Positions 1 through 64,000 are shown, numbered from the stretch's first letter. The stretch: 64,000 nucleotides of DNA from an uncultured Bdellovibrionales bacterium (GCA_964604195.1 CAZRXW010000001.1:2358-66357); one strand, 5' to 3'. Made by a program: numbers and translations. The notes: a model not told the origin generated them from the sequence alone.

Positions 1-1553
1 CTCATATTCCCAAAGGAGGTATTGTGGTCCGGGATGCCAAGAAAAATGAAGCGCTCACGCTTTTGGATGATACAGTGCTTTCTCTCTCCAAGGACGACAT
101 TGTCATCGCTGATAGTCGCCGCGCCTTGGCTCTTGCAGGAGTCATGGGGGGCAAACACTCGGGTATAAGCAGCGATTCAAAGTCTGTGGTGTTTGAGCTC
201 GCTCATTTTGATGCCAAGAGTATTCGGCGTACCGAAAAGCGCTATCGGATGCAGACGGATGCGGCCTATCGTTTTGAGCGCGGCATTGATCTTGGCCGAC
301 CGGGTGAGGTGATGGCTCTTTTAGCGGAGAAGGCTGCTCTCTGGGGTCTTGGTCATGATTTCTTTTACCGAGAGGTGGGGGTTAAGCTTCCTAAGCCAAA
401 ATCTATTACGCTCGAACTCGAAGCGGTGGCGAGTCTTTTGGGGGCTAAAGTACCACTTTTTGAAATCGTACAGTATTGTTCCTGGCTTGGTCTTTCGGTC
501 AAAAAACTTCCCAATCGCCAAGCGCTTCAGGTTACTCCACCACTGCGTCGACCAGATCTGAGCACCCCAGAAGATATTATTGAAGAAATTGGGCGAACAC
601 GCGGGTATAGCGCTATAGAGCCGCTCCCTCTTGCTCTTCCAGCGGTACCATTGGTCCGAGACGGGGATAAAGCATTTGAACGTACACTGAAACATACCCT
701 CGCTCATCTTGGTTTTGATGAAGTCATGACCTATTCCTTTTATAGCGAGAAGTCAGCTCTCGCGTCGGGATATGCTCCGACCGAACATTTGAAATTGGCC
801 AACCCCATGAATCCTGATCAGGCTCTCATGAGGAGAAGTCTTTTCCCGGGGCTTCTTCGAGCGGCACTCAACAATACTGCCCACTCAACCCGCTTCTCGC
901 TCTTTGAATTTGGCAGTGTTTATTTTCCCACTAAGGAAAAGCCCGATGAAGAGAAAAAAGTAGCACTCCTCTGTTTCGATCGTGAAAGCACTTCTGTTGA
1001 GGCAAGTTTTCTTGATTTCAAAGGACGGGTAGAAGCACTTTTTGGTCAGCTCAAGGTCCCGGTAAAGTTTTTGCCAGTATTGGTAGCGGTGCCGCGCTAT
1101 CTCGAGTCAGGGGGAGCCGCCAATCTTACTGTGCAGGGTGAAATTTTTGGAACGATTGGTATTGTAAAAGATGTTGCTATCCAGAAGTTTGGCAAGCGTG
1201 CTGTATTATTCTTTGTCGAATTTTCGGTCAAGACGGCCGCTGCTTTCCAAGAACAAGAGCGAGTCTTCCAAAGGATTGCTCGTTTTCCTATGGCAGAGAG
1301 GGATATTTCTCTCATTGGTCCAAAAGAGGTAACGTACGATAGGCTGCTTCAGGTTATTGAGTCAGCTGGCGCACCACTCCTGAGGAAGGTAGAACTGTTT
1401 GATGTCTATCCCACTGAAGAAGAAAAGAGCTTTTCTCTTCATCTTGGTTTTCAGTCTGATGAACGGACGCTCTCCGGCGAGGAGATGGATCGCTCTTTTG
1501 ACGCGATAGTAGCAGCAGCTGGGGAACATCTCAATATGAGATTAAAGCTTTAA
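1..1553 (+). CDS. pheT: phenylalanine--tRNA ligase beta subunit, C-terminal ~515 aa (5' end lies upstream of window)
   Basis: Reading frame is open from nt 3 to the stop at 1551-1553; the track ORF starts at an internal GTG (24). Translation shows PheT B3/B4 and C-terminal FDX-ACB-like regions (e.g. ...VFELAHFDAKSIRRT..., ...GVMGG...). Confidence 0.8.
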   Translation, partial: HIPKGGIVVRDAKKNEALTLLDDTVLSLSKDDIVIADSRRALALAGVMGGKHSGISSDSKSVVFELAHFDAKSIRRTEKRYRMQTDAAYRFERGIDLGRPGEVMALLAEKAALWGLGHDFFYREVGVKLPKPKSITLELEAVASLLGAKVPLFEIVQYCSWLGLSVKKLPNRQALQVTPPLRRPDLSTPEDIIEEIGRTRGYSAIEPLPLALPAVPLVRDGDKAFERTLKHTLAHLGFDEVMTYSFYSEKSALASGYAPTEHLKLANPMNPDQALMRRSLFPGLLRAALNNTAHSTRFSLFEFGSVYFPTKEKPDEEKKVALLCFDRESTSVEASFLDFKGRVEALFGQLKVPVKFLPVLVAVPRYLESGGAANLTVQGEIFGTIGIVKDVAIQKFGKRAVLFFVEFSVKTAAAFQEQERVFQRIARFPMAERDISLIGPKEVTYDRLLQVIESAGAPLLRKVELFDVYPTEEEKSFSLHLGFQSDERTLSGEEMDRSFDAIVAAAGEHLNMRLKL

Positions 1554-1640: not shown

Positions 1641-2340
1641 TTACAAAACAGGTTGGACTACTGCGCTACGGTGTGGAAAGTCCGGACATCGACCCTCTCA
1701 TTTTTGGAGAGGGAAGGGTAGTGGGTAACGCCCACACGTCGTGAGACGCGAGGTGCGAGCAGAGACGCTCATGGAATGAGAATTTCAGAGCCCTTGTCTT
1801 TGACAAGGTGAGTCCTCGTAGTGATATGAGGGGTGAAACGGCTAAATCCTTACTTCGATGCAAGGTCGTGTCCCGCACCTTTTCAGGTTGATAAAGATAA
1901 TTTTGGTATATACCAGATGACCGTCTTTTTAGAGAGATGGTTGTTGGTTTACGAGTCTGAAAAGGTGCGGGAAGAACCGCAAAGATTTCTCTAGTAATAG
2001 AGAAGCAAGAGAAATAGTAGTCACCCCGCACCTTTTAGTCTTGAGAGAGTTTTATGTACTATATGTACTGAGGAGCAGGCAAAAAGATATTTTCTATATT
2101 GGCTGTACTGAAGATCTTAAGAAAAGAATTCTTCAGCACAACAATGGAGAGTCTCGAGCCACAAAGTCCGCTGCTCTTTGGGAGTTGATATATTACGAGG
2201 CTTATACTTCTTTAAGTTTAGCGAGACGTCGTGAGTTGAGGTTAAAACATCATGGAAAAGGTTTAGCTGAACTCAAAAAGAGAGTTATTGAAGACTAAAA
2301 GGTGCGGGGTACAGAATCCGGCTTATAGACCTGTTTTGTA
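1641..2340 (+). ncRNA. rnpB: RNase P RNA (bacterial type), ~700 nt with large ORF-containing insertion
   Basis: P4 5' strand GGAAAGTCCGGAC at 1675-1687. Universal GGGTAACGCC at 1723-1732. AGGGGTGAAACGG and CAAGG elements follow. P4 3' strand ACAGAATCCGGCTTA at 2311-2325. Terminal P1 pairing ACAAAACAGGT (1643-1653) with ACCTGTTTTGT (2329-2339). No protein-coding signal on + strand in 1560-2040. Confidence 0.75.
2041..2298 (+). CDS. GIY-YIG nuclease family protein (COG2827/YhbQ-like, 85 aa) encoded inside the RNase P RNA gene
   Basis: ATG 2041, TAA 2296-2298. N-terminal FYVLYVLRS...IFYIGCTEDLKKRILQHN matches the GIY-YIG motif pattern, followed by conserved R/E-rich helix (LARRRELRLK). Lies entirely in the loop of a 13-bp hairpin, CCCCGCACCTTTT 2024-2036 paired with AAAAGGTGCGGGG 2297-2309. 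Confidence 0.7.
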   Translation: MREFYVLYVLRSRQKDIFYIGCTEDLKKRILQHNNGESRATKSAALWELIYYEAYTSLSLARRRELRLKHHGKGLAELKKRVIED

Positions 2341-2372
2341 AAAGTGCTTTCAATTATTAGTTATTCAAGCTT

Positions 2373-3788
2373 GTGAAACGATCAGAAATCTATTTTGGTG
2401 CCCTGCAGCTCCCGGTGGATTTCGTGATGATACTGTTGGCGGCCGCCTCCGCTTATTTTTTGCGTGGCACAGAATTTTTTCAGCCGTACGTTTCGCGAGT
2501 GTTCAACCTGGCCTTTGATGATTATTTTCGGTTTGCACTCACGGTAGCACCACTCTTCATCGTTATTTTGGCGATCGAAGGATTGTACCGTATGCGGGTC
2601 ACTCGTCGTTTGTGGCAAGAACTCTATGGGGTGACCAAGGCTATTACGATTGGTCTCATCATTCTCATGATTGCGGTATTCCTCCAGCGAGAATGGTTTT
2701 CGTCACGCTTTGTTATCCTGGTCTCTTGGTTTTTGGCAGTGGTCTATGTTGTTTTTGCTCGTTTTCTCTTGCAGCGCGTACAGCGTTGGTTTCTTATTCA
2801 TCGGGGAGTAGGAGTACACAGACTTCTCCTTATTGGGACCAATCAACGCATGTATGCTCTCAAGAAGCTGCTCACCCGAGATAAGACACTTGGCTACCGA
2901 GTAGTTGATCATATTGATACGGCGAGCGTGACGAGAGTCAAAGAGATTCGTGCCAAAAAGGGGATTGATGAGATTGTTATTGGCGATCCGACTCTGACTG
3001 ATGATGAACAGGAGAAATTGTTTGACTATTGTCAGATCAACAATATTACCTACAAGTATTTCCCGACAACTCTCCAGACGCCACGTTTTGAAATGAAAAT
3101 TTTCAATGGCGAGCCAGTGATCGAATTTCAGCATACACCGCTTGATGGGTGGGGCAAGGTTTTGAAGCGAGCCTTTGATATCGTGGCGGGAGTTATCCTG
3201 ACGATTCTCTTTTCCCCAGTGATGCTCATTATTGCTCTCCTCATCAAACTTGAGGATGCTGGTGGTCCAGTTATTTATACCAACGAACGTATTGGTGAGA
3301 ATGGTGAGAAAATTCCTGTCTTCAAGTTTCGCTATATGCAGTGGAAGTGGTGTATTAATAAGGCGAATCCCAATTTTCAAGAGGCGCTGGCCTATGAAAA
3401 AGAGCTCATCGCCGAGCGCAGTCTCCGTGAAGGGCCACTCTACAAAATCAAGGATGATCCACGTAAGACGAGGGTGGGAGCGATTATTGAGCGCTATTCT
3501 ATCGATGAACTTCCACAGCTTTTCAATGTTCTCCGAGGAGAGATGAGTCTTGTGGGCCCACGGCCGCATCAGAAGCGAGAAGTGGAAAAGTATAGTGAAT
3601 ATCACCGTCGTCTCCTTACTATCAAACCCGGAGTCACTGGGATGGCCCAGGTATCCGGCCGCTCAGATCTCGATTTCGAAGACGAGTATCGACTGGATGT
3701 GTTTTATATCGAGAACTGGTCTCTTTGGCTCGACATCCTCATCTGCTTCAAAACAGCTGCCGCTCTTATCCGCCGCCGCAGGAATTAG
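2373..3788 (+). CDS. undecaprenyl-phosphate sugar phosphotransferase (WbaP/WcaJ-type bacterial sugar transferase, polyisoprenyl-phosphate hexose-1-P transferase)
   Basis: GTG start. N-terminal 5 TM helices. C-terminal bacterial sugar transferase domain (RAFDIVAGV..LSPVM..IIALLIKLEDAGGPVIY..ERIG.NG..F.KFR.M, ..DELPQLFNVLRGEMSLVGPRP). Confidence 0.85.
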   Translation: MKRSEIYFGALQLPVDFVMILLAAASAYFLRGTEFFQPYVSRVFNLAFDDYFRFALTVAPLFIVILAIEGLYRMRVTRRLWQELYGVTKAITIGLIILMIAVFLQREWFSSRFVILVSWFLAVVYVVFARFLLQRVQRWFLIHRGVGVHRLLLIGTNQRMYALKKLLTRDKTLGYRVVDHIDTASVTRVKEIRAKKGIDEIVIGDPTLTDDEQEKLFDYCQINNITYKYFPTTLQTPRFEMKIFNGEPVIEFQHTPLDGWGKVLKRAFDIVAGVILTILFSPVMLIIALLIKLEDAGGPVIYTNERIGENGEKIPVFKFRYMQWKWCINKANPNFQEALAYEKELIAERSLREGPLYKIKDDPRKTRVGAIIERYSIDELPQLFNVLRGEMSLVGPRPHQKREVEKYSEYHRRLLTIKPGVTGMAQVSGRSDLDFEDEYRLDVFYIENWSLWLDILICFKTAAALIRRRRN

Positions 3789-4646: not shown

Positions 4647-6650
4647 ATGAGTACGCTCATCAAGTTGGTGCTGGTTGGGTGGCTTGTCTCGCTCTCCCAG
4701 TTCGCAGTGGCTGCTATGCCAAGTCTCAAGTTGCCATTCGATACGAGTGAACCCTGGCGGGTAAACAGAGGCTACGAGCAAGGCTGGTCTCACAAGGGGA
4801 AAGATCGCTACGCACTTGATTTTGCGTCTGGTGACTGCGATCGAACTTACGGCAAACCGATTCTGGCTGCCGCATCAGGAACAGTGAGGTCAATCGATAG
4901 AGTCGAGAAGCAAACCCCAACGGATTATCCTAGCTACGGGAACCAAATCATCATCGATCATGGTGACGGGTGGACGACACGCTATGCCCATCTGAGCGAA
5001 ATCGACTCCTCAGTCGCTGAGCATGGTGAGAGGCGTTTCGTCGTGCAGGGTCAGAAGATCGGTGAAGCGGGTGGGACGGGATCAGTTGAAGGATCGATGT
5101 GTACGCGTACCGATATCCCTGTTGGCGTCCTTGGAGTCCATCTTCACTTCGCCCTCTACTATAACGGTGATGGCGTGAAACCAGAGCCAATGAGTGGGTA
5201 CAGTGGATTTGCTGCTGAGACGTGGTATGCCTCCAACAACACCCAGCAATCCCCAGCCATGACCCAACCTGCTATCTCTTGTGTTTACGTGGCTGGAGAC
5301 AACCAGTTCTGCTGGAAGAGCGCCAATGCCACACCGGCCTCATGCGGGAAGGCAGTAGCGTGGATCCTCAACGACAACACTGCTCAGGTGTTGTACAACA
5401 AATCAGCGAGTGACTGCCCGACATACTGTACGGTCTCCAATAGTTACTGCAGAGATGTTTCCGGTAGCTTGAGTGTCGGTGGTTTCGGCTCCCTCTCCTC
5501 CTTCAACCTCAAGATCAACCGCTTCTGGGTGAGAGATGTAGCGACACAACTCGATTTGGTTTCAGGTGGTCACACCGTCCGTACTGGTCAAGCTCTTGAG
5601 GTGCGGCTTCAGCAAAAGGCGGTCAATGGCAATACCAACGACTACATGCGCCCCGGCAAGGATCGGGTCGAGACTGACCTTTACAACAGAGAAGACAGTG
5701 GTGACTGGCGTTTCCTTGGTCGGGAATACACCCAGGCTATCAACTTGCCGAAGGACGCTACCCACACCGAGCATGTGGTCTATACCGTCCCTCCTGGTGC
5801 TACGGAAGTGTGCTTCAAGGGGAAGATCGATGCCGAAGACGAAGCCTCCGAAAACAATGAAGGGGACAACTGGTCGCCGGTGGCCTGTTTCCGGGTCGAC
5901 AACAATCCGACGGTCAATTTCATTACCACCTTTATCGGCCTGACCAATACCCCGACCCCAGTGCCACCTGGGAGTGCTATGCGGGCCAGGATGGCCATCC
6001 GGAATGTTGGAACGACGGCACCTAGTGCTGCCATCAGGAGTAGCTACAGCTATCGACCACTCGGTTCGACAGGTCCCTGGATCCAAATCGCTGATGATGG
6101 CTCGGATCCATCAGATCTCGTGCCCAATCGAGATCACTGGGAGGAGACTCTTTCAGCGGTTACTGCTCCGCAAGTGCCGGGTTGGTACGAACTGCGTGGT
6201 TGCGCCGACTACCAGAACGCTGTCCTTGAATCGAACGAAACCGACAACTGTCTCACGACAACTTTTGAAGTCGCTGCCTACCCCGACCTCATCATCACCT
6301 ACATCGAGATTGATCCTTGGCCAGATCGGTCGATCCAGAAGGACAAGGAGCACCATCCTACCATGAAGATCAAGAACGTCGGTCCTGGACCGGTTACCTC
6401 GGGCATCCGGAGTGCCTACTACTGGTACGGACCCTCTACCGGAAATGTCTGGAGACTCATCGCTGACGATGGGACAGAAGCTCAGGAACTCTGCGCTGGT
6501 TGTGAGGTAACGGAAACCATGAGGAGTGGTTTCAAGGCTACCAAGACAGGAACTCACTACCTCAAGGCTTGCGTTGACTACCAAGGCAACCAACCTGAAG
6601 GAGATGAAGGAAACAACTGTCTTCAGAGTGCTCCCATCACGGTGAAGTGA
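4647..6650 (+). CDS. secreted M23 (LytM-type) metallopeptidase with C-terminal CARDB-like repeats; GC-rich gene
   Basis: Signal peptide (LVLVGWLVSLSQFAVAA). M23 motifs (YALDFA..G.PILAAASGTV, IIIDHGDGWTTRYAHLSEI, GQKIG.AGGTG, LHFALY). Three C-terminal repeats carrying NETDNCL / EGDNWSP / EGDEGNNCL motifs typical of CARDB/adhesin-like beta-sandwich domains. GC and GC3 are clearly higher than flanking genes. Confidence 0.8.
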   Translation: MSTLIKLVLVGWLVSLSQFAVAAMPSLKLPFDTSEPWRVNRGYEQGWSHKGKDRYALDFASGDCDRTYGKPILAAASGTVRSIDRVEKQTPTDYPSYGNQIIIDHGDGWTTRYAHLSEIDSSVAEHGERRFVVQGQKIGEAGGTGSVEGSMCTRTDIPVGVLGVHLHFALYYNGDGVKPEPMSGYSGFAAETWYASNNTQQSPAMTQPAISCVYVAGDNQFCWKSANATPASCGKAVAWILNDNTAQVLYNKSASDCPTYCTVSNSYCRDVSGSLSVGGFGSLSSFNLKINRFWVRDVATQLDLVSGGHTVRTGQALEVRLQQKAVNGNTNDYMRPGKDRVETDLYNREDSGDWRFLGREYTQAINLPKDATHTEHVVYTVPPGATEVCFKGKIDAEDEASENNEGDNWSPVACFRVDNNPTVNFITTFIGLTNTPTPVPPGSAMRARMAIRNVGTTAPSAAIRSSYSYRPLGSTGPWIQIADDGSDPSDLVPNRDHWEETLSAVTAPQVPGWYELRGCADYQNAVLESNETDNCLTTTFEVAAYPDLIITYIEIDPWPDRSIQKDKEHHPTMKIKNVGPGPVTSGIRSAYYWYGPSTGNVWRLIADDGTEAQELCAGCEVTETMRSGFKATKTGTHYLKACVDYQGNQPEGDEGNNCLQSAPITVK

Positions 6651-6784: not shown

Positions 6785-7222
6785 ATGACTGATACAAAGC
6801 TGAAGAGAAATTTAAATATACAATTTGTTGTAAGGGTGATTTTTTGGTCACTCCTGTTTCTATCCCTGATTTTGACGGTTAAGCGGGTATATATAGATCG
6901 AGATTTTGTCCTCTCTCAAGAAATAGAATGTGATCCTTGGACTGAGAGTTGTTTTACTCGGCTTTGCGAGGAAGACTGTGACACAGAGAAGGAATATTAC
7001 AAATTACAGACTGTCTCTGCGCGGTACATGTCAACGTGTGATCCCCATATTGAAGAATGTCCAGAAATTGACTGTAATGAAACTCCAACCTGTGAGATTG
7101 TTTTCTGTGATGAGATCACCGTGACGGATGGTGAATGGTGTACAACTCCAGAAACATATCATGGGGATCAATCTGAAGAGGGGACGGATGATCTAGAAGA
7201 GGATAATGCAATAAACCAGTAA
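6785..7222 (+). CDS. hypothetical small Cys-rich acidic protein with N-terminal TM anchor
   Basis: In-frame ATG 6785 (the track ORF begins upstream at 6647, inside the terminator region). One TM (VVRVIFWSLLFLSLILTV), then 14 Cys in CxxxC / CxxC-like spacing and an Asp/Glu/Thr-rich C-terminus. Confidence 0.45.
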   Translation: MTDTKLKRNLNIQFVVRVIFWSLLFLSLILTVKRVYIDRDFVLSQEIECDPWTESCFTRLCEEDCDTEKEYYKLQTVSARYMSTCDPHIEECPEIDCNETPTCEIVFCDEITVTDGEWCTTPETYHGDQSEEGTDDLEEDNAINQ

Positions 7223-7229
7223 GATTGCT

Positions 7230-8522
7230 ATGCGCGTCCTCTTTATCTCCCGAGAACTTGGAGCTTCCGAGCTTGCTGTGGCCCTTCAACAGGAGGGCTG
7301 TGAAGTTAAAATGTTTGTCGATGACCCTGTAGTGAGTCACGGTCTTGATGGAATTGTGTCAAAAATTACCGACTGGGAATCTGAGTTGACATGGGTTGGG
7401 AAGCAAGGGCTTATCATCTTCGATGATACGGGATATGGTAAGCGTCAGATGGAATTACGAGCTTTGGGATATCGAGTGGTTGGTGGGAGCCAGGAAGCAG
7501 ATAGAATAGAGATTGATCGACTAGTAGGGAAACAAATATTTGAAGCGTCTGGTCTCCAGTCACTGACGACTTGTAGTTTTGATAACCTTGAGGAGGCTAT
7601 CCATTTTTTGTGTTCCCAGAACAATAAACGTTGGGTAGCAAAAGTAAACGGGGGCCACATTAGTTCATTGTGCTATGTCGGAGAAAATTATGACCAGAGT
7701 GATATTATTGGAGTATTGAGTCATTATCATCAGCAGGGAGTAACTCACGTAAATCTCCAAGAGCGAGTAGAAGGCGTGGAAATAGGAGTAGGACGCTACT
7801 TTAATGGATCAGATTGGGTTGGTCCAGTTGAGATTAACGTTGAGCATAAGTCACTTATGCCAAATAATGTTGGTCCCAAGACAGCGGAGATGGGTACACT
7901 CATGTGGTATGAAAGTGATGAAGAATGTCGCCTTTTTCAATCTACTTTGGCTCCGATGAAAGAATATCTGAGGAGTATAGATTTTCGTGGAGATGTAGAT
8001 ATTAATTGCATTATTCATGAAAATAATCTTTGGCCGCTGGAATTTACGGCTCGTTTTGGCAATCCTGCTACGGCATTGCAAATTGAAATACATGACTCTC
8101 CTTGGAGAGAGTTTCTTGGTGCGGTAGCGGATGGAGCTCCCTATGATCTTAAATTTAAGAAAGGTTACGGGGTCGTTGTAACGGTAGCAGTGCCACCCTT
8201 TCCTTACTATGTAGATGTCTCATCAGCTGAGACCTCTTTTGGTTTACCGGTAGTTTTTCGACAGTTATTGAATGAAAACGAATGGAAGCACTATGGCTTT
8301 GAAGAGATTGGTCGCGATAGTTCAGGAAACTTTTTTGTCGCAGGTAATCGTGGCTGTGTGGCGCATGTGACTGGTTTTGGTGAGACTATTGAGAAGGCTC
8401 GGGAAGAAGCCTATCAACGAGTAGGTAACATAGTGGTACCGAAGATGTTCTATCGGTCGGATATAGGGTTAAATTTTTTTGAACGAGAGCAGTCTCTCTT
8501 AAAGCAATGGGGATGGCTCTAA
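7230..8522 (+). CDS. divergent PurD-like ATP-grasp ligase (phosphoribosylamine--glycine ligase family)
   Basis: Collinear with PurD. N-domain MRVLFIS..GASE.A.A. ATP-grasp core with NVGPKTAEMG (cf. GPNTGGMG). C-domain WPLEFTARFGNPAT (cf. EFN.RFGDPET) and FYRSDIG (cf. FCRKDIG). Lacks the canonical GNGGREHA N-terminus, so substrate is uncertain. Confidence 0.6.
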   Translation: MRVLFISRELGASELAVALQQEGCEVKMFVDDPVVSHGLDGIVSKITDWESELTWVGKQGLIIFDDTGYGKRQMELRALGYRVVGGSQEADRIEIDRLVGKQIFEASGLQSLTTCSFDNLEEAIHFLCSQNNKRWVAKVNGGHISSLCYVGENYDQSDIIGVLSHYHQQGVTHVNLQERVEGVEIGVGRYFNGSDWVGPVEINVEHKSLMPNNVGPKTAEMGTLMWYESDEECRLFQSTLAPMKEYLRSIDFRGDVDINCIIHENNLWPLEFTARFGNPATALQIEIHDSPWREFLGAVADGAPYDLKFKKGYGVVVTVAVPPFPYYVDVSSAETSFGLPVVFRQLLNENEWKHYGFEEIGRDSSGNFFVAGNRGCVAHVTGFGETIEKAREEAYQRVGNIVVPKMFYRSDIGLNFFEREQSLLKQWGWL

Positions 8523-8547
8523 TTTAAAACCCCAGATCTTTTTCTAT

Positions 8548-9486
8548 ATGGATACGTGGCTCATTATTTCTTTAATTGCTCCAGCGTTATGGGCAATTAC
8601 CAATCTTATCGATGTCTATTTTGTTGCATCGTCTTATGATGATGAATATGATGGTGCTGTTATCTCCGGATTCTTCCAACTCTTCCCCTGGTTGTTAGTG
8701 TTGATTGGGTGGCAACAGTTTCATGGGTTTGGTGATGGGAGTGCTTATCTTTTTATCGGTGGCGTTTGTTATCTCCTCTTCCTTTTCTGGTATTTTAAAG
8801 CGTTGTTTTCAAAAAATGACGTTGCTCTTATTCAATTACTTCTTAATTTGGCAGTACCAGTAACGCTCATCCTTTCTTTTGCCTTCTATAGAGAGTTTAT
8901 TTCGGGACTACAATTTGTAGGTGGACTGCTAATTTTTGGCGGTGTTAGCGTGTTAGGTTTCCAGTCATCGTTTCAATGGTCTCAAATAAAGCACCTGGCT
9001 TTTCCTATGGGGTTGGCCGTTATTTTTCTTTCCCTAAGTATGATTTTTTCGAGCAAGGGATATGATTATGGGCATGGTTTTTTTAGTTCGTACCTTATTT
9101 ATTCTCTTGGCATGATGGCTACGGCAGCCGTCTTACTCCTCTTTAAACAGAAGAAAGACAGTGCATTTATAGGGCATCTTGTTACTTTGACAAGGAATTA
9201 TTTTGGTATTTTTCTTGTAGCTGAATTTATCGGGCTTCTGGGTTATATATTCTCTCAGCGTTCACTTGATCTGGCACCCTCGGCATCTTTAGTGGTACTA
9301 GTTGAATGCCTTCTTCCAATATTTATTCTTGTTTTTAGTTTTTTCATACTGGTATTTTTCAAAATTACCAATTCACATCAATCCCTTGTGGACGAAATTT
9401 ATCGAGATCAGCTTATTGGATATCCAGTTAAAATTATAGCTACGGTACTGGTCAGTCTAGGTGTTTATGTTTTATCATTGGGTTAA
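8548..9486 (+). CDS. hypothetical polytopic membrane protein (~9-10 TM)
   Basis: Continuous hydrophobic helices throughout, no soluble domain; follows ATP-grasp gene by 25 nt. Confidence 0.55.
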   Translation: MDTWLIISLIAPALWAITNLIDVYFVASSYDDEYDGAVISGFFQLFPWLLVLIGWQQFHGFGDGSAYLFIGGVCYLLFLFWYFKALFSKNDVALIQLLLNLAVPVTLILSFAFYREFISGLQFVGGLLIFGGVSVLGFQSSFQWSQIKHLAFPMGLAVIFLSLSMIFSSKGYDYGHGFFSSYLIYSLGMMATAAVLLLFKQKKDSAFIGHLVTLTRNYFGIFLVAEFIGLLGYIFSQRSLDLAPSASLVVLVECLLPIFILVFSFFILVFFKITNSHQSLVDEIYRDQLIGYPVKIIATVLVSLGVYVLSLG

Positions 9487-9494
9487 TTTAATCT

Positions 9495-11165
9495 ATGTTT
9501 TGTATTGACATACCATCTCCTGTAGCGCTTATTTTCTCGGAGTCTACACCGACGCTGCTTTATTATTCGCATCTCCCAGTGATATTTGTGTCTATTTTAA
9601 TTGGTCTGCTTGTTTTTTCTAAAAATAAAAGTCTTGAAAGCCGATTGCTCTTGGCAGTCGTGGTTTCTTTTGCGACATGGAATCTGATTGATCTCGTTAA
9701 TTGGACAAATGTTGATGCTCGCATCATCATGATTTCCTGGTCTTTCATGAACTTCTTCTTTTGTTTGGTTGTAGCGCTCACTCTTTATTTCTCTTATGTC
9801 TTTTTAAGAAAAGAAGAGCCGAGGCTATGGGCACTGCTAGTTGGAGCTCTGCCTCTTATTACTTATATCCTATTTATTCCTACATCATTCAATCTTATAG
9901 GGTTCGATCTAGCCATTTGTGAGGCAATGGAGGGTTCTTTAGTTACCTACTTTCATTTGCTCCAGGCATTTTACTTTGTTTGGCTGGTTCTCTTTTTGAT
10001 TCATGAATGCTATCAAGATTGGAAACTAAAAAAGAAACAAGCTCTTTACTTGGGATTAGGTATAGGCTTCTTCATTCTGAGCTTCTATACAGGTAATCTT
10101 GTGGCTGATATTCTCGATAATTGGGAATTGGAACAGTATGGTCTTTTCGGAATGCTTATTTTCATGATGTTTCTGGTCTATCTAATTGTCCGCTACCAGG
10201 CTTTCAACATGAAGCTCCTAGGGGCTCAGGCTTTAACAGCGGCCTTTGTTATTCTTATAGGAACTCAGTTCTTCTTTGCTACAACTACCATTACAATTGT
10301 TCTTACCACCATTACATTTGTCCTTTCTCTTATTTTTGCTTATTTCCTTATCAGGGAAGTGAAAAAAGAGGTTCAGCGGAAGGAGGAGTTGGAGGTGCTG
10401 ACCAATGAGTTGTCAGTCGCCAATACCGAGCTCAAACGGCTTGATAGTGCCAAGAGTGAATTCATCTCAATTGCATCTCACCAACTCCGTACGCCACTTA
10501 CTGCTATCAGGGGATTTCTTGATCTTTTGCTCGAGGGAGCGTATGGAAAAATTGAACCAAAGGTAAAGGATACTTTGGGCAAGTTGACCATTGCTAATAA
10601 TCGTCTCATGGGTTTGGTGGAAAATCTTTTGAATATCTCTCGTATTGAGGCGGGGAGGATCCAGTATCAGTTTAATCCAGCTCATATCGAAGATATAGTA
10701 AATGAACTGGAAGATATGTTTGTACTGGCCGCAAAAGAAAAGGGTATAGCTTTCTCAGTCAAAAGGCCCAAGCAGTCACTGCCTCTTCTCTCGCTTGATG
10801 CCACCAAGATTCGTGAGGTAATTTCCAACCTTATCGATAACGCTCTGAAGTACACTTCTCAGGGGTCGATAACGGTTTCGTATGAGCACCACCCTCACTC
10901 TGTCCGGGTCATTATAACCGACACAGGTATGGGCATCGAACCTAAAGATTTGCCGCATATATTCAAGAAGTTTGAGCGTGGAACAGGAGCGGAAAAAGTC
11001 AATGTATCAAGTACGGGGTTAGGGCTCTATGTAGGGAGTAAGTTTGCTGAGGCGCATGGAGGAACTATTCGTGCTGAATCAGCGGGCAAGGGTCAGGGCT
11101 CCCGGTTTATTCTGGAGCTCCCGGTGCACATTGTAGAACGGGCCAAGGAGTTGCCCCAAGCCTAA
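9495..11165 (+). CDS. sensor histidine kinase with N-terminal multi-TM sensor domain
   Basis: About 8 TM helices. Coiled coil. HisKA H-box SIASHQLRTPLTAIRGF. HATPase_c N/G1/G2 boxes (NLIDNALKYT, DTGMGI, GLGLYV). Confidence 0.8.
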   Translation: MFCIDIPSPVALIFSESTPTLLYYSHLPVIFVSILIGLLVFSKNKSLESRLLLAVVVSFATWNLIDLVNWTNVDARIIMISWSFMNFFFCLVVALTLYFSYVFLRKEEPRLWALLVGALPLITYILFIPTSFNLIGFDLAICEAMEGSLVTYFHLLQAFYFVWLVLFLIHECYQDWKLKKKQALYLGLGIGFFILSFYTGNLVADILDNWELEQYGLFGMLIFMMFLVYLIVRYQAFNMKLLGAQALTAAFVILIGTQFFFATTTITIVLTTITFVLSLIFAYFLIREVKKEVQRKEELEVLTNELSVANTELKRLDSAKSEFISIASHQLRTPLTAIRGFLDLLLEGAYGKIEPKVKDTLGKLTIANNRLMGLVENLLNISRIEAGRIQYQFNPAHIEDIVNELEDMFVLAAKEKGIAFSVKRPKQSLPLLSLDATKIREVISNLIDNALKYTSQGSITVSYEHHPHSVRVIITDTGMGIEPKDLPHIFKKFERGTGAEKVNVSSTGLGLYVGSKFAEAHGGTIRAESAGKGQGSRFILELPVHIVERAKELPQA

Positions 11166-11201
11166 TAGTCTGCTAATCTAGGGCGGTTAGAAGCAAAATA
11201 T

Positions 11202-11570
11202 ATGTCAAAAATATTGTTGGTTGAAGACGATCCATTTATAGCTGAGATTTACGAGAAAAAGCTCGCTGACGCTGGTTTTGAGGTGGTCAATGCCAAGACG
11301 GGCAAGGAGGTCCTCAAACGAGTTGCCGAATCGGCATATGATCTGGTGCTGCTTGATATGGTCCTTCCAGAGCTTTCAGGCATGGAGGTTCTCCAGGAGC
11401 TCCGCAGTAAGCCGGAATATGATCAGAATCTCAAAATAGTGGTGTTTAGCAATCTTTCGAGTCCAGAAGAGCAAGCGGCTGCCATCAAAGCTGGGGCAAC
11501 GGGTTTTATTTCCAAAACCTCATTTGCTCCCTCTCAAGTAGTGGATGAAATAAAGCGATATTTGATGTAA
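11202..11570 (+). CDS. single-domain response regulator (CheY-like receiver)
   Basis: ILLVEDD...DLVLLDMVLP...K at expected positions of the REC fold; no output domain. Confidence 0.8.
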   Translation: MSKILLVEDDPFIAEIYEKKLADAGFEVVNAKTGKEVLKRVAESAYDLVLLDMVLPELSGMEVLQELRSKPEYDQNLKIVVFSNLSSPEEQAAAIKAGATGFISKTSFAPSQVVDEIKRYLM

Positions 11571-11581
11571 TTGAATGGCGT

Positions 11582-12907
11582 ATGTCCTCGAGAGTTTTGG
11601 TTCTTGATGCGGTGCACAAAATTGGTGAGACGATCGAACTTCGTGGTTGGGTGAGTGTTCGTCGTGACCACGGTAAGTTAATTTTCCTCGAACTTCGTGA
11701 TCGTAGTGGGTCAGTGCAGCTGGTGGTTACTCCAGAAAAGGAAAATGTTTTGACGGTGGCAAAAGAAGTTCGTCCAGAATATACGGTCTCGGTAACTGGA
11801 TTAGTCAAAGAACGTCCCGGAAAAGCAGCTGAGAGTTCACCTACTGGCGGAATAGAAATTGAGGTTACATCACTCTCGATTCTCTCCCAGCCAGCAGAAG
11901 AACTTCCTATTGATGTTTCCAAGACTGATCTCGAACTCAATCTCGACACACTTCTTACTCATCGCACCCTGGCTCTTCGTAATGAAAAAGTGCGAGCCAT
12001 TTTCAAGATTTACTCCGAAATGCTTTTTGCTTATGGTGAAGCACTTCGGCAGGAGGGATTCCTCGAAATCAAGACCCCCAAGATTCTTTCGGCAGCTACG
12101 GAGGGCGGGGCAAACTTCTTCAAAATTAAATACTTCGATCGAGATGCTTTTTTGGCACAGAGCCCTCAGTTCTACAAGCAGGCTGCTATGAGTGCCTTTG
12201 AGCGAGTCTTTGAGGTGGGTGTTGTGTTTCGAGCGGAGCCAAGTTTTACTACTCGCCATGTGACAGAGTATACCGGTCTTGATGCTGAGATGGGTTTTAT
12301 TGAGAATGTCGAAGAGGTGATGGCTATGCTAGAAAAAACCATGATGCATGTCTTCGCTCATATTGGTAAAACCTGCCAGAAAGAACTCGCCCTGTACGGA
12401 GCCACCGTTCCAGAGGCGGTGCCTATCCCACGCTTGCGACTAGCGGAAGCTTTCGAGATTCTCAAGAATGAATTTGGAAAAGTAATCCCTGAAGGCGAGG
12501 ATATTGATAGTGAAGGAGAGCGTCTCATTGGTGAGTACGTTAAAAAGAAATACAATTCCGATTTTGTTTTCCTCACTCATTATCCAACGGCGGTACGGGC
12601 TTTTTATTCATTGCCGAGTCCTGAAAATCCCAAGCTGTGTGAAAGCTATGACCTCGTGTTTCGTGGTCTGGAAATTGCCTCAGGAGCTGAGCGTGTACAT
12701 GAGTATCAGATGTTGGTGGATATTCTCAAAGGTCGCGGGCTTGATCCGGCTCAGTTTAGTGACTATCTGGATATCTTCAAAAACGGAGCGCCTCGGCATG
12801 GTGGATGGGGATTGGGTTCTGAACGTATAGTGCAGAAGCTTCTCGGGCTGGAGACTATCAAAGAAGCGATTCTCTACCCTCGAGATGTGAAGCGTCTCAC
12901 CCCCTAG
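11582..12907 (+). CDS. aspS: aspartate--tRNA ligase, archaeal/eukaryotic type (class IIb; AsnRS not fully excluded)
   Basis: N-terminal OB anticodon-binding domain (IELRGWV...GK.IFLELRD). Class II motif 2 FRAEPSFTTRHVTEYTGLDAEMGF. Motif 3 GGWGLGSERIVQ. Length 441 aa fits archaeal-type AspRS. Confidence 0.7.
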   Translation: MSSRVLVLDAVHKIGETIELRGWVSVRRDHGKLIFLELRDRSGSVQLVVTPEKENVLTVAKEVRPEYTVSVTGLVKERPGKAAESSPTGGIEIEVTSLSILSQPAEELPIDVSKTDLELNLDTLLTHRTLALRNEKVRAIFKIYSEMLFAYGEALRQEGFLEIKTPKILSAATEGGANFFKIKYFDRDAFLAQSPQFYKQAAMSAFERVFEVGVVFRAEPSFTTRHVTEYTGLDAEMGFIENVEEVMAMLEKTMMHVFAHIGKTCQKELALYGATVPEAVPIPRLRLAEAFEILKNEFGKVIPEGEDIDSEGERLIGEYVKKKYNSDFVFLTHYPTAVRAFYSLPSPENPKLCESYDLVFRGLEIASGAERVHEYQMLVDILKGRGLDPAQFSDYLDIFKNGAPRHGGWGLGSERIVQKLLGLETIKEAILYPRDVKRLTP

Positions 12908-12923: not shown

Positions 12924-12960
12924 AACCCGTCCTTTAGCCCTGGGCGGGTTTCTTTTTGTT
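12924..12960 (+). terminator. rho-independent terminator (AACCCGTCC ... GGGCGGGTT + T-tract)
   Basis: 9-bp stem (one G-U) and 9-nt loop followed by TCTTTTTGTTTT, 17 nt after aspS stop. Confidence 0.55.
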
Positions 12961-17591: not shown

Positions 17592-18023
17592 ATGACGCAA
17601 CAGCCGAAATTTGTACCGAAACCTGGACAGGTAGACTTTACGGATATACGCTATTGTCCGGTGATGAACTGTGTTGTGCAGCACAGGCGAAAAATTCTGG
17701 TGGTACAGCGGAGTGCAGCGTTGCGACTCTATCCAGAGTATTGGAATGGGATTAGTGGTTTTCTTGATGATAAGCGAAGCTTTAAGGAAAAAGTGTGTGA
17801 TGAACTAAGGGAAGAATTAGGAATAAAAAAGAACAATATCCTTTCTATTGAAATGGGAAATATTTTTCATCAGGAATCGCCAAAATATAAAAAAACATGG
17901 ATTGTGCATCCGGTACTGGTCGAAGTGGATACCGACAAAGTAAAACTCAACTGGGAAGCTCAAGATTTCCAATGGCTCTCGGCCCAGAGAAGCAATGAGG
18001 CTCAAACTTCTGCCAGGTTTTGA
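17592..18023 (+). CDS. NUDIX hydrolase
   Basis: NUDIX box variant (E.VCDELREELGI) in a ~140-aa protein. Confidence 0.7.
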   Translation: MTQQPKFVPKPGQVDFTDIRYCPVMNCVVQHRRKILVVQRSAALRLYPEYWNGISGFLDDKRSFKEKVCDELREELGIKKNNILSIEMGNIFHQESPKYKKTWIVHPVLVEVDTDKVKLNWEAQDFQWLSAQRSNEAQTSARF

Positions 18024-18924
18024 TCAGGTGTTGGGCTCATTTTTCAAAAGGTAACTGTTATGAAAAAAAAGTATTGATTCTTGGAGCGAGAGGGATGCTG
18101 GGACAAGAACTGGTCCGGGTATTTGGTATGGATGAACAGTATGAAATCATAGCTTGGGATAGAGTAGAGATGGACGTGACGGATTTTCAGGCTTTGACAG
18201 CGGGGATTGAACGCTTGAATCCAGCTATTATTCTAAATGCAGTGGCTTACAATGCGGTAGACCTTTGTGAGACGAGCGATGAGGAATTCGCTAAGGCAAA
18301 GCTTCTCAATACCCGTGTACCAGAAAAATTGTCTCAAATAAGCCAAAAAATAGGGAGCATTTTGGTGCATTACTCCACAGGCTATGTCTTTGATGGGAAA
18401 TCCGAGTCGGGGTATGATGAGAAAGTGCCCACGGAGCCACTCTCCCACTACGGGGCAACCAAACTCGGGGGGAAGAAAAAGTACTCGAGAGTGGGGCGAA
18501 GACCTATGTTATTCGGCTCTCGAAGCTTTTTGGGAAACCAGGGAGTTCTGCAGTAGGCAAGCGGAGTTTCTTTGATGTCATGCTTGAGAAAGGCAGGACT
18601 TCTGTTTCAGTGAAGGTAGTGGATGATGAGAAAAGTTGTTTTACCTACGTACCCGACTTGGCCGAAGCAACAAAATCTTTGATTGAAGATAAGGCACTCT
18701 ATAGTATCTATCATCTGCTTAATGAAAATGCGGTGACGTGGTGTGAGGCAGTACAGGAGCTTTATCGGTTGGCAAATGTAACGACGAAAGTGATTCCGGT
18801 GACGAGTGCCGAATTTCCGCGACCGGCGAGGAGACCACATGCTTCGGTTTTACAAAATACCAAACGACCAAAAATGCGACACTATCAGGAAGCATTGGCG
18901 GAATATCTGCATCAAGAATTATGA
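18020..18924 (+). pseudogene. rfbD: dTDP-4-dehydrorhamnose reductase, interrupted by frameshift(s)
   Basis: Frame A (18020-18556) encodes the RmlD N-terminus through ...HYGATKLGG. The continuation (VLESGAKTYVIRLSKLFGKPGSS...MLEKG...VKVVDDE...) is in the +1 frame (up to 18924) after a G6/A5 homopolymer at 18466-18480. The likely native start ATG 18060 (MKKKVLILGARGMLG) is also out of frame because of an A8 run. Confidence 0.65.
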
Positions 18925-61799: not shown

Positions 61800-61917
61800 G
61801 AGAGCGCTGCTCTCTCCTCTCGAGAGACTCTGAAGGTTCAGGTTTTCTCGAGAGGAAAGATTCGACCAAGTACCTAAAAATCCTACTTATCTTCAATCTT
61901 ATCAATGGAGGTCTCTC

Positions 61918-62763
61918 ATGAGGCTTGCTCCCTGGATACTGAGCTTGGCTATCGCTCTGCTTACGGGTTGTTCTTCTTTGCCACGTGATAGTGGCTTCGA
62001 AGTGCGGACCGTCGAGCCGATGGGTCGCCAAGATCCCTGGCAGAACCGTGCGATCAACCTCGCGCCGTTCACGCCGAAGGGTGTGGCAGTTCTCTATGTC
62101 CGGCTCCCGCAGCCGATACCGAGTTTCTGGCGACAGGAATTCGTCGACCCGGCACGGGTGTACGAAACGACCGAGGCAGGCCGCAAGGTTCGCCAACCGC
62201 TCGTACGAGAAGTCTTCCGGGCCATCGTCATGAGGAATGGGGTGACTCAAACTCATGACGCCGTGGTGGACCGCGAAGGTCGAGGGTTCCTCGTCTTCGC
62301 GCTGCTTACCGTAGCCGACACACTTCCGGGCCAGTCGCTCCTCATCCTGTCTTCGGACGGGAAATGGGGTATGACGAGCCTGGGAGAGCGTGTCGAGTTT
62401 CCTTCGGGTTTCGACCCGCGGGCAGTTCCCAGTGACTTCTTCGTCCAGCACCGCTCACCGATTACGCAAGTAATTCGGCTCGAGCCGGCAAAGGACGAGT
62501 ACGCCCGGCGTGTCCTTGATGGTCTTGCGCAAAGTTTCCCCAAGCTGTTCTGGCTGAGGGGGAAAGACGAATCCTATGCCGGGAAACCGGATGTGGCCGA
62601 TGTCCTTGCGCAATTCACCTCCCTCGAGGGAGTAGCTGACAAACTGCTCACCTGTACCAGTCTCAAGGCTGGTCCGGCGACGGCAGCAGCGCTCCCACTC
62701 GTCGCGACGCTCTACGGCATCCAAGCCGTGCGAGCGCTCAGCGTTGATGACTGCCTGAAATAA
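61918..62763 (+). CDS. hypothetical lipoprotein, GC-rich (~62% GC)
   Basis: Signal peptide with lipobox LTGC. Strongly elevated GC/GC3 versus the rest of the window. No motif recognised. Confidence 0.55.
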   Translation: MRLAPWILSLAIALLTGCSSLPRDSGFEVRTVEPMGRQDPWQNRAINLAPFTPKGVAVLYVRLPQPIPSFWRQEFVDPARVYETTEAGRKVRQPLVREVFRAIVMRNGVTQTHDAVVDREGRGFLVFALLTVADTLPGQSLLILSSDGKWGMTSLGERVEFPSGFDPRAVPSDFFVQHRSPITQVIRLEPAKDEYARRVLDGLAQSFPKLFWLRGKDESYAGKPDVADVLAQFTSLEGVADKLLTCTSLKAGPATAAALPLVATLYGIQAVRALSVDDCLK

Positions 62764-62899
62764 GGCAGAGAAAGGAGTCCGCTCATATGAGCAGCTCAAC
62801 TGTTTCAACCCGTTACCGGGACGAAGCGTGGGCTGCTCCTTGTGGCCCACCTTTGCTCCTGGATTCTTCAACTGAACCCATGCCCGAAGGAGGCACCAA

Positions 62900-64000
62900 A
62901 TGAAGTCAACTTCAAGAGTGGCAGCAGCAGCGGCCACACTCATCAACCCGCGAACGGTGATGCCTCTGGCAGCTATCGTTGCAGCGAGTCTCTTGGCAAC
63001 CTTCACCCAGGTGGTGAAGAGTGCTGGGCAGACAGCTTCAGCAGCCGCCAGTACTCCAGCCGTTCAGGCGTCGGCACCAGCTCGGGCAGCGAGTGCTCCG
63101 GCAGTTGCCGCGAGCACACCGCAGCCCCGGGCTCCGAAGCCTGCAGCGGTGACTACCACCGCTACCTCGACCGATGTCTACTATCTGACCCCCGGCAGTT
63201 CGCTGTCGGCAGCCTTCGGCAAGGGGTGGAAGAAGGTGTGTGACGCCAGTCACCTCCGCCAATGCGGAATCGTCCGACCGACGGATCCGCTGAGTGTTCC
63301 TGCCGACGTGAAAATCGTCGACGGGACCAAGCTGCGGGCGAAGCCAGCGGCTCAAGTAGCGGTCAAGCGTGCAGTGTCCAGGGACGCAAGTCCTCAAGCA
63401 ACGCGCGTTGTCCGCCGGGCAGTGATGCGGGAGCAATCCTGCATTACGCTCGGAGTGGCGCCGTGGAATCCTGATGGAGACCTCGCGCGTACTTTGGCGG
63501 GCATCGACCAGATGCAATCGCTGACGCCTGAGCAAAAGGCGCTGGTGAAGACCAAGGTCAAGGCTGGTGAATGGACGACGGAAAACGAGCTCGTTGGGAC
63601 GCAAGTCTTCGGCGAAATGCTCTACGCGGGTGCTCATTCAGGCAAAGCCCAATCTGTCCGTGGCAAGCCGCTCTGCACACCTGAACAAGGTGGGCAACCG
63701 GAAGTCATGAACACGATCGATCTGGGAGATGGGGTTCATTTCTCCCTCCCACGTCGGTGCAAGAACCCGAGCGTGTTCACACGCCCGATCGTTCCGCAAC
63801 CGCGACAGCCTGAACCCGAGTCGCCACCGCCAGACCAGCCACCGCCACCGCCAGACCAGCCACCGCCACCGCCAGACCAGCCCACAACTCCTCCAGTCGT
63901 GGCAGCCCCTCGGGGTATGTGCGACTTCGTCGATGTGGCCGGGGCACTGGGTCAACACCATGTGCCACGCCAGAACGGTGACAAGGCTAGCTCAGACTTT
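62900..64000 (+). CDS. secreted Ala/Pro-rich protein with C-terminal PPPPPDQ tandem repeats; GC-rich, 3' end beyond window
   Basis: ATG 62900 with strong SD GAAGGAGG 7 nt upstream. Frame (phase 2) is open to the window end; it is absent from the ORF track because no stop lies in the window. Signal peptide, then Ala/Ser/Pro-rich low-complexity region, several Cys, PPPDQ repeats. Confidence 0.5.
   Translation, partial: MKSTSRVAAAAATLINPRTVMPLAAIVAASLLATFTQVVKSAGQTASAAASTPAVQASAPARAASAPAVAASTPQPRAPKPAAVTTTATSTDVYYLTPGSSLSAAFGKGWKKVCDASHLRQCGIVRPTDPLSVPADVKIVDGTKLRAKPAAQVAVKRAVSRDASPQATRVVRRAVMREQSCITLGVAPWNPDGDLARTLAGIDQMQSLTPEQKALVKTKVKAGEWTTENELVGTQVFGEMLYAGAHSGKAQSVRGKPLCTPEQGGQPEVMNTIDLGDGVHFSLPRRCKNPSVFTRPIVPQPRQPEPESPPPDQPPPPPDQPPPPPDQPTTPPVVAAPRGMCDFVDVAGALGQHHVPRQNGDKASSDF
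63824..63880 (+). repeat. tandem 21-nt repeat (CCACCGCCACCGCCAGACCAG, 2 full + 1 partial unit) encoding (PPPPPDQ)n
   Basis: Direct reading of 63824-63880; also produces the WRWRW periodicity seen in the spurious minus-strand ORFs here. Confidence 0.7.

Follow-up and report, generated by a model that had tools for sequence, protein, structure and literature searches.

A PurD-derived ligase of a distinct ATP-grasp clade and its gene neighbourhood in Patescibacteria

What reaction is carried out by a protein that folds like the purine-synthesis enzyme PurD, when its gene lies between those of a small cysteine-rich membrane protein and a transporter and a two-component system follows? This arrangement is found in a 64,000-nucleotide stretch of DNA (GCA_964604195.1, CAZRXW010000001.1:2358-66357), which was analysed as a whole and is called the window here. 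The genes are named CYS (Cys-rich protein), LIG (ligase), DMT (transporter), HK (histidine kinase) and REC (receiver). The DNA is that of a Moranbacteria-like patescibacterium; by database similarity the window ligase is closest to proteins of Candidatus Moraniibacteriota and other Patescibacteria (the Candidate Phyla Radiation, CPR). An earlier note on this DNA had read the locus as a substrate peptide with its ligase, a membrane partner and a regulator, after the manner of graspetide systems. The reading preferred here, with a probability put at roughly 0.55, is that LIG is an enzyme of PurD type that has taken on a new function as a carboxylate-amine ligase, works together with a solute carrier, stands under two-component control and has a secreted Cys-rich partner, and that it acts on what is probably an amine or guanidino metabolite derived from arginine or ornithine. 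The LIG clade is previously undescribed; literature searches found no paper on it or on its gene module.

The fold and active site of the ligase

The window ligase matches the Pfam domains GARS_A (30.4 bits) and GARS_C (35.8 bits) and has no Pfam match to GARS_N; against the purD equivalog model TIGR00877 it scores 97.3 bits, below the cutoff of 288. These values agree with the description of LIG in the earlier note as a divergent, non-canonical PurD relative without the N-terminal motif. When a profile of the LIG family was compared with the PDB, PurD proteins were the sole matches (E values from 1e-27 to 1e-11), in alignments that begin around residue 74. The AlphaFold model of LIG (pLDDT 92, pTM 0.90) has PurD as all of its top 15 PDB structure matches, with TM-scores of 0.71-0.79 over the full length at 17-22% identity. 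The next matches are biotin carboxylases and other, related carboxylases that depend on biotin, and the 50 structural matches listed include neither RimK nor a microviridin-type ligase. With this fold, and with the conserved Lys, Arg and Glu residues described below, LIG belongs to the ATP-grasp superfamily.

The active-site residues of Aquifex PurD (PMC8880213) were placed on 78 CPR members of the family. The positions that handle ATP and the acyl phosphate are invariant in these sequences, E100, K103, K143, E192, E283 and R287 of PurD corresponding to E94, R97, K138, E184, E271 and R275 of the window protein, and K214 (window K207) is near-invariant (75/78). Other positions have changed throughout the family: D212 is replaced by an invariant Glu (E205), the magnesium-site residue N285 by an invariant Thr (T273) and E185 by Gln (Q177), and at a loop position G227 has become a new invariant Glu (E220). 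It is clear that R97, Q177, E205, E220, T223 and T273, all of them invariant, form a signature of the LIG clade. The PS00184 signature, R[LF]GDPE, is lost, the window protein reading RFGNPA at this site; across the family the Asp position (D290 in PurD) is variable, being occupied by S, F, C or T (W in phages), and the Glu position, where PurD has the glycine-binding residue E292, is Ala, Ser or Ile. The N-terminal Gly-rich loop of PurD, IG-x-GGREHA, binds the phosphate of phosphoribosylamine. At this position LIG reads ISRELGASE (residues 7-14 being SRELGASE), with S-x-[DE]-L as the family consensus, and its C-terminus is extended by L..L..WGW, which PurD does not have.

Since the ATP-grasp machinery for an acyl phosphate is kept and both PurD substrate sites are replaced, LIG would be an ATP-dependent ligase that forms amides from carboxylates and amines, with substrates other than those of PurD. 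Part of the glycine-ammonium site is replaced, and E220 lies in the loop that covers the acyl-phosphate site; such a pocket would be suited to a nucleophile with a positive charge.

Could LIG nevertheless be the organism's divergent PurD, a glycinamide ribonucleotide (GAR) synthetase serving purine synthesis or salvage? Its best sequence and structure matches are all PurD, the catalytic core is kept, and in two loci a formyltransferase gene comes after LIG, as PurN follows PurD in the pathway. Against this stand the score of 97 bits where 288 is required, the missing GARS_N domain and Gly-rich loop, and the lost Asp and Glu of PS00184; the same criteria excluded the 'extra' PurD-like proteins of haloarchaea, Hlac_1553 and rrnAC0307, which were judged not to be GAR synthetases (PMC3261824). 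As had been claimed from the sequence, no purine-pathway domain is present among the scanned open reading frames (ORFs) of the 64-kb window, about 18 of those in its second half having been judged by eye only. Furthermore, the cultured relative Minisyncoccus archaeiphilus, which has a LIG ortholog (locus L016), is reported to be without several nucleotide-biosynthesis genes (PMC12281837), and the same clade is found on phage contigs of about 40 kb, beside DNA-ejection genes. LIG is PurD-derived and is not a GAR synthetase; that it serves purine synthesis after all is extremely improbable. LIG proteins are automatically annotated as "phosphoribosylamine--glycine ligase" or "hypothetical", and under the PurD label a step of purine synthesis is wrongly attributed to organisms that are known to lack the synthesis of nucleotides.

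Conserved neighbourhood and partner proteins

The neighbourhood of LIG was compared in 77 usable species-level genome loci, in which all ORFs were clustered without prior labels. The kinase family is present in 59 of them, DMT in 48, CYS in 44, the receiver in 29 and the aspartyl-tRNA synthetase AspRS in 22; mem6, a protein with four transmembrane segments (4-TM) that replaces DMT in other lineages, is present in 20, AdoMetDC-like proteins in 17, GNAT in 9, and a GAMT homolog and SET proteins in 8 each. Proximity was tested against a background in which 0.36 of genes lie within three genes of LIG. By this measure DMT (42/48, p=3e-13), mem6 (19/20, p=5e-8), CYS (35/45, p=1.5e-8) and HK (46/65, p=1.6e-8) are strongly concentrated there, and the controls are not: AspRS 6/24 (p=0.92), MreB 0/15 (p=1) and a glycosyltransferase family (GT9) 2/23 (p=1). 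The gene orders seen include CYS-LIG-DMT-HK, CYS-DMT-LIG-HK, mem6-CYS-LIG and LIG-CYS-HK, the genes being reshuffled yet kept together.

As the identity of LIG drops from 68% to 45%, a membrane partner, either DMT or mem6, accompanies it in 14/14, 24/25 and 30/38 loci; such a partner lies within three genes of LIG in 61 of the 77 loci, leaving 16 with none. Near LIG there are 42 cases of DMT, 19 of mem6 and none of both, and no homology between the two was detected by hhalign; this mutual exclusion of unrelated proteins suggests that one membrane partner displaces the other in the same role. That LIG, a membrane protein, CYS and the two-component genes form a conserved functional module is well supported. 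The module proposed in the earlier note therefore stands, and CYS, whose conservation beside the ligase in relatives it had proposed to check, does recur there; the part that made CYS a substrate peptide does not stand, on the evidence of the tail, the predicted topology and the fold.

Inherited synteny could by itself produce such a pattern, with LIG acting alone and the transporter, CYS and kinase unrelated to it. The phage and archaeal homologs work without these partners, and the 16 loci without a nearby membrane partner would fit the same idea. The linkage, however, persists through rearrangements and down to 45% identity, where the synteny of AspRS and MreB decays, and the mutually exclusive use of two non-homologous membrane partners is not accounted for. 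The LIG-DMT pair has also, it appears, moved between genomes as an island of low GC content: a chromosome of 6.04 Mb labelled Rhodospirillales (OZ244972.1, locus L031) carries LIG, an EamA transporter and a REC gene at a GC content of 0.38-0.42 in surroundings of 0.55-0.59, flanked by a LuxR-type regulator, restriction-modification genes and a BBE oxidase. This is consistent with movement of the pair as a unit out of Patescibacteria, and mere synteny is, on balance, improbable.

The CYS protein was found, as described before, to be 145 residues long with one transmembrane segment (residues 14-32, its one hydrophobic segment) and an acidic, Thr-rich tail (E19, T16 and D14 in its composition). 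It has 10 cysteines, at positions 49, 56, 61, 65, 85, 92, 97, 103, 108 and 119, and not the 14 previously counted. An alignment of 44 orthologs contains eight invariant and two near-invariant Cys, two CDPxxExC motifs and a YYK motif; the acidic low-complexity tail is of variable length, and about 10 of the orthologs have none. The N-terminal tail is short and Lys-rich (typically MDKKSK) and the segment after the membrane span is 26% acidic and 5% basic; by the positive-inside rule, CYS is therefore predicted to lie N-in/C-out, with a disulfide-rich Cys domain and tail outside the cytoplasm. Searches of Pfam, PDB profiles and folds gave no credible relatives of CYS, whose AF2 model has a pLDDT of 69.5. 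In two loci (L034 and L040) a second CYS copy pairs with a second kinase and not with the ligase, and in L053 and L069 CYS stands directly before HK; these pairings favour a role as a ligand-capture or co-sensor protein that would partner the kinase.

The same facts bear on the graspetide-like reading, in which LIG would ligate CYS as the peptide substrate of a ribosomally synthesised and post-translationally modified peptide (RiPP) system. The two genes adjoin, 7 nt apart, they co-occur in 44 of the 77 loci, and Thr, Asp and Glu abound in the tail. Yet it is the Cys domain and not the tail that is conserved, and the predicted topology would put the tail outside, away from a cytoplasmic ATP-dependent ligase. 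LIG falls in the PurD clade and not in the RimK/microviridin clade; 33 loci, all phage contigs and the archaeal members are without CYS; and a second CYS copy can serve a second kinase. No peptidase or ABC-exporter genes of the kind found in RiPP clusters recur around LIG in the 77 loci. Peptide ligation, as the earlier note had it, is accordingly very unlikely.

DMT and HK fit their earlier descriptions as a polytopic 10-TM protein and as a multi-TM sensor kinase encoded together with a stand-alone receiver. DMT has 10 hydrophobic segments, and although the window copy scores 22 bits against EamA, below the cutoff of 28.2, its orthologs match EamA (PF00892) in 36/39 cases, at best with 5e-17. 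The best PDB match is YddG (5i20), the nearest NCBIfam family is the 2A78 carboxylate/amino acid/amine transporter (15/39 members), and there are weak matches to quaternary-ammonium SMR exporters; by these sequence comparisons DMT is a bona fide member of the EamA/DMT superfamily. For mem6, searches of Pfam and PDB profiles found no credible relatives. HK matches HisKA (1.9e-16) and HATPase_c (2.8e-25); against HisKA_7TM (PF16927) it scores 28.4 bits, the cutoff being 28.6, and a crude hydropathy scan gave nine segments. Close relatives have, at the position of REC, a tandem REC-REC protein of about 275 residues, as in L001 (Table 1).

A membrane partner that looks obligate, being near LIG in 61 of 77 loci, would also be expected if LIG modified an envelope precursor, linking an amino acid or diamine through an amide to a peptidoglycan or glycopolymer precursor that DMT or the 4-TM protein then flips. 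The window does hold envelope genes (Rml genes, a sugar transferase, GT4, MurJ and an M23 peptidase), and phage LIG sits between ejection and tail-fibre genes. Accessory ('moron') genes are often met in that phage slot. There is no concentration of glycosyltransferase or Wzz-like families around LIG (GT9 2/23), for which reason the link to glycopolymers was given less weight; AdoMetDC-like, GAMT and agmatinase-like proteins, which accompany LIG as described below, are small-molecule enzymes, and DMT is closest to carriers of carboxylates, amino acids and amines. Envelope modification is on this evidence unlikely.

Chemistry of the module and relatives in phages and archaea

Variable genes occur inside the module, either immediately ahead of LIG or flanked by the membrane-protein and kinase genes, and the enzymes they encode consistently produce or alter primary amines or guanidino groups. 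Of the AdoMetDC-like pyruvoyl decarboxylases, 14 of 19 copies lie within three genes of LIG (p=1e-3); arginine and ornithine decarboxylases are among the homologs that this family has in CPR and phages (PMC10407285), and in locus L048 the insert is, from its motifs, an AdoMetDC-spermidine-synthase fusion. Other inserts belong to the agmatinase/guanidinobutyrase family (E=1e-29), to a close homolog of mammalian guanidinoacetate N-methyltransferase, GAMT (E=3e-43), to PRMT-like methyltransferases (2e-17) and to Fmt/ArnA-type formyltransferases (2e-18), and GNAT and SET proteins are also among the variable genes; at least one of AdoMetDC-like, GAMT, GNAT and SET is present in 32 of 77 modules. 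Similar neighbours are met outside CPR: a viral contig has an AdoMet_dc gene two genes from LIG, a class-III aminotransferase is encoded directly upstream of it on a contig of 525 kb, where cytochrome b and Rieske genes are found as well, and in an archaeon ArgRS takes this upstream position. Phages encode many polyamine enzymes, including gss homologs, among which no PurD-like one has been described (PMC9992855). The substrate of LIG is probably an amine derived from arginine or ornithine, or a guanidino metabolite.

The GAMT homolog usually adjoins LIG (loci L007, L008, L011, L019, L030, L060, L062 and L079; see Table 1 for an example), and its presence in such reduced patescibacterial genomes was unexpected.

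PRMT-like, SET and GNAT genes in the slot beside LIG, together with tRNA-synthetase and ribosomal-protein neighbours in several contexts, could alternatively mean that LIG is a protein-modifying ligase, comparable to RimK or tubulin-tyrosine ligase, which shares a target with these enzymes. The commonest methyltransferase, however, is the GAMT homolog (3e-43), a small-molecule enzyme, and the neighbours include metabolic enzymes, namely AdoMetDC-like and agmatinase-like proteins and a class-III aminotransferase; the transporter would be left unexplained, and no candidate target protein is conserved. A protein target is, by this account, quite unlikely.

The ligase clade extends well beyond the CPR. 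An exhaustive profile search (E<=1e-30) gave 707 clusters at 50% identity, and family-specific peptide patterns picked out 223 loci in species-representative genomes and 218 viral contigs. R97, Q177, E205, E220 and T273 are kept in 80 of the 80 viral homologs compared (28-43% identity), which also share a C-terminal extension that PurD is without, L..L...G-aromatic; archaeal members carry the same active-site signature. On viral contigs of about 40 kb (GC 0.32-0.67), LIG comes after DNA-ejection genes (phrog_598, 1e-45; phrog_26400, 7e-22) and before tail-fibre and lysozyme genes. No PHROGs family exists for LIG, CYS or DMT, and no BFVD viral structure is close to LIG (best TM-score 0.49). Among deposited phages one uncultured record, MW202796.1, carries LIG, unannotated there, and the other matches are ordinary purD.

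In a neighbour-joining tree the CPR and viral LIG sequences stand on a long branch (0.91) away from PurD. Of the viral sequences, 71 form one clade; CPR LIG is monophyletic, with eight viral sequences as its sister group, and divergence is greater in viruses (1.12) than in CPR (0.73). This tree, in itself only indicative, suggests that the CPR ligase gene branches from within the diversity of the phage genes.

Ten of the best 150 LIG representatives are 738-1123 residues long. In the long sequences inspected, inteins are inserted at 217|218, 222|223 and 273|274, that is, inside the loop G-P-x-T-x-E-M-G-T and the motif E-x-T-x-R, and their identity is backed by precomputed LAGLIDADG, Hint and Intein_splicing matches. 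The bearers are P0147, P0148, P0153 (which has two), P0166 and P0205, from loci L162-L163 and L169-L171; some are archaeal, and in L169 the neighbours are the ribosomal proteins S3Ae and S15P. The targets of intein homing are the best-conserved functional sites of strongly selected proteins, and the present insertions therefore mark the signature motifs as the functional core of LIG.

Near viral LIG no transporter, kinase or CYS gene was found, with L081 as the one exception. This 'viral' contig was considered as a phage-borne module and set aside, as its ligase nests in the CPR clade and it carries DMT; it is probably a patescibacterial fragment. The only partner common to CPR modules and phages is a protein of about 135 residues with an HExxE motif (HELVE), which is 42% identical between them (E=5e-33); it adjoins LIG in both CPR loci (L034 and L040) and in three of four phage loci, and lies four genes off in L094. 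Since phage LIG does without the CPR partners, the core reaction would be independent of transporter, CYS and kinase, and these may be a patescibacterial elaboration around it.

Two further observations concern the phage neighbours. In L143 (viral family v15), an ejection-like phage protein is encoded directly upstream of LIG, and its C-terminal motif, SYHPAGDVHGQGKAIDFSV...HIHVQ, resembles, by eye only, that of an M15/VanY-type peptidoglycan hydrolase. A phage GNAT (v6) was considered and dismissed; it has no tie to spermidine acetyltransferases and does not belong to the CPR GNAT family.

The preferred mechanism is as follows. In the cytoplasm LIG would form an acyl phosphate from a carboxylate and then an amide with an amine. 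It would be coupled to a membrane carrier, which is DMT here and the non-homologous 4-TM protein in other lineages, and which may move the substrate of LIG in or its product out. The multi-TM kinase and the output-less receiver would control or report this traffic of substrate or product, and CYS, membrane-anchored, disulfide-rich and acidic, would be the extracellular partner for ligand capture or co-sensing. The best guess for the reaction is that agmatine, putrescine, a polyamine or a guanidino acid is joined to a small carboxylate, the free nitrogen then being capped in some lineages by methylation, acetylation or formylation.

Several points tell against this mechanism. The amine idea rests on guilt by association: an amine accessory enzyme is present in under half of the modules, that of the window itself has none, and the PRMT-like, SET and GNAT enzymes could equally modify proteins. 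The change of the magnesium-site N285 to Thr is unusual for active ATP-grasp enzymes, and the receiver is without an output domain. The phage homologs are without transporter, kinase and CYS, so that the CPR module may be a lineage-specific elaboration that says little on the core reaction; furthermore, a gene order conserved among streamlined CPR genomes can be due in part to how rarely these rearrange.

A wider and more tentative proposal, possible though doubtful as it stands, is that LIG represents a new enzyme class which makes an amide conjugate of an arginine- or ornithine-derived amine, that its gene has moved among phages, Patescibacteria and archaea, and that in episymbionts it serves an exchange module. 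Candidate products would be an acyl- or aminoacyl-agmatine or -polyamine, or the amide of a guanidino acid. If this were true, episymbiotic Patescibacteria would use a module for uptake or export and sensing to exchange a metabolite with their hosts, and phages would use a stand-alone LIG, encoded beside their ejection genes, to redirect the polyamine or guanidino pools of the host at an early stage of infection. The size of the clade, its sharp active-site signature and the inteins in its motifs in any case mark an important enzyme to which no reaction has been assigned. The module is one of few conserved ones in Patescibacteria that unite an enzyme, a transporter, a surface protein and a sensor, and such modules are candidates to explain how episymbionts take up metabolites from their hosts or signal to them. 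As the cultured Minisyncoccus archaeiphilus carries it, the question is open to experiment.

The gene string in its window, and known systems

All five genes named in the earlier note were found on the plus strand with the boundaries it had given (Table 1). The intergenic gaps across the string are 7-36 nt, and a consensus scan gave no terminator-like site in the gaps upstream of the hairpin that follows AspRS. With such short gaps and no terminator until after AspRS, which is probably a syntenic neighbour outside the module, the string CYS-LIG-DMT-HK-REC through AspRS looks like a single operon. A promoter scan of the window gave fewer matches than shuffled sequence and was uninformative.

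Table 1. Coordinates of the module, of other features of the window and of features of related loci; positions refer to the sequence in the first column.
Sequence	Feature	Position	Strand	Basis or remark
Window	CYS, Cys-rich membrane-anchored protein, 145 aa	6785..7222	+	ORF, composition, 44 aligned orthologs
Window	LIG, PurD-derived ATP-grasp ligase of distinct clade, 430 aa	7230..8522	+	Pfam/NCBIfam, structure model
Window	DMT, 10-TM EamA/DMT-superfamily transporter, 312 aa	8548..9486	+	hydropathy, ortholog Pfam matches
Window	HK, multi-TM HisKA_7TM-like sensor histidine kinase	9495..11165	+	Pfam matches
Window	REC, stand-alone receiver, no output domain, 122 aa	11202..11570	+	Response_reg 1.8e-24
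Window	AspRS, probably syntenic neighbour, outside module, apparently co-transcribed	11582..12907	+	tRNA-synt_2 8e-80
Window	First intergenic terminator-like hairpin downstream of the gene string	12936..12950	+	consensus scan only
Window	Large, apparently secreted protein	4647..6650		M23 peptidase domain, two CARDB domains
Window	rmlD-like gene, first ORF	18020..18556		RmlD_sub_bind 2-134
Window	rmlD-like gene, second ORF	18580..18924		RmlD_sub_bind 163-284
Window	Second REC-domain protein, 186 aa	33921..34481
Window	GC-shifted end	61800..64000
L001	Tandem REC-REC protein	5620..6474
L031	Low-GC island with LIG, EamA transporter and REC gene	8001..11237		OZ244972.1
L062	GAMT homolog	1814..2527	-
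L143	Ejection-like phage protein	2..1906
L034	HExxE protein	9384..9773
L040	HExxE protein	9387..9815
L092	HExxE protein	5282..5689
L094	HExxE protein	347..769
L115	HExxE protein	5567..6004
L116	HExxE protein	5582..6004

The genes of the window are compact and nearly all on the same strand, and beyond the gene string the scanned ORFs are housekeeping and envelope genes: PheT, RmlABCD, SHMT, GalU-like, GT4, MurJ, LepA, YceG, DnaJ, RecJ, PBP1 and ABC proteins. Directly upstream of the module lies the M23/CARDB gene; such genes are also near the module in the complete genome CP064975, and are not general (3/78 loci). The rmlD-like gene is in two ORFs, which is either a frameshift or pseudogene or a sequencing error. 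The second REC-domain protein is encoded between dnaJ and recJ, with no kinase nearby. In the final 2.1 kb or so of the window the GC content rises sharply, from roughly 0.45 to 0.57-0.65. Some of the ORFs in this part lie on the minus strand; the ORFs are rich in Arg and have no Pfam matches. Foreign DNA, or a chimeric assembly at the contig end, could account for the shift.

Of known systems, PurD (TIGR00877; GARS_N/GARS_A/GARS_C) shares with LIG the four-domain fold, the ATP-grasp core residues and the Arg that stabilises the acyl phosphate. LIG differs in being without the loop for the phosphate of phosphoribosylamine, the R[LF]GDPE motif and two of the three glycine-binding residues, in having the six invariant signature residues (R97, Q177, E205, E220, T223 and T273) and the C-terminal L..L..WGW helix, and in occurring in phages and in a window that has no purine-pathway domain among its scanned ORFs. 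The haloarchaeal proteins Hlac_1553 and rrnAC0307, likened to it by description, resemble LIG in having no GARS_N, a divergent N-terminal loop and no conserved PS00184 Asp.

Two analogies concern the proposed reaction and its substrate. Glutathionylspermidine synthetase and gamma-glutamylpolyamine synthetase (PuuA type) form amides between a carboxylate and a polyamine at the expense of ATP; the analogy is functional only, there being no sequence relationship with LIG, and PuuA has a glutamine-synthetase fold. Enzymes of polyamine and arginine metabolism are nonetheless recurrent neighbours of LIG. Graspetide systems of the microviridin type also place an ATP-grasp enzyme beside a small ORF rich in Thr, Asp and Glu, but LIG belongs to another ATP-grasp clade, CYS is a membrane-anchored ectoprotein without a conserved core motif, and neither leader nor protease/exporter genes are found at LIG loci.

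For the membrane part of the module, a parallel is transporter-coupled two-component sensing of the BceAB-BceS and DctA-DcuS type. There too a kinase with little extracellular domain is encoded beside a transporter, and the CYS-HK pairs of L034, L040, L053 and L069 recall the link of a small membrane protein to a kinase. HK differs in being HisKA_7TM-like and its regulator in being without an output domain.

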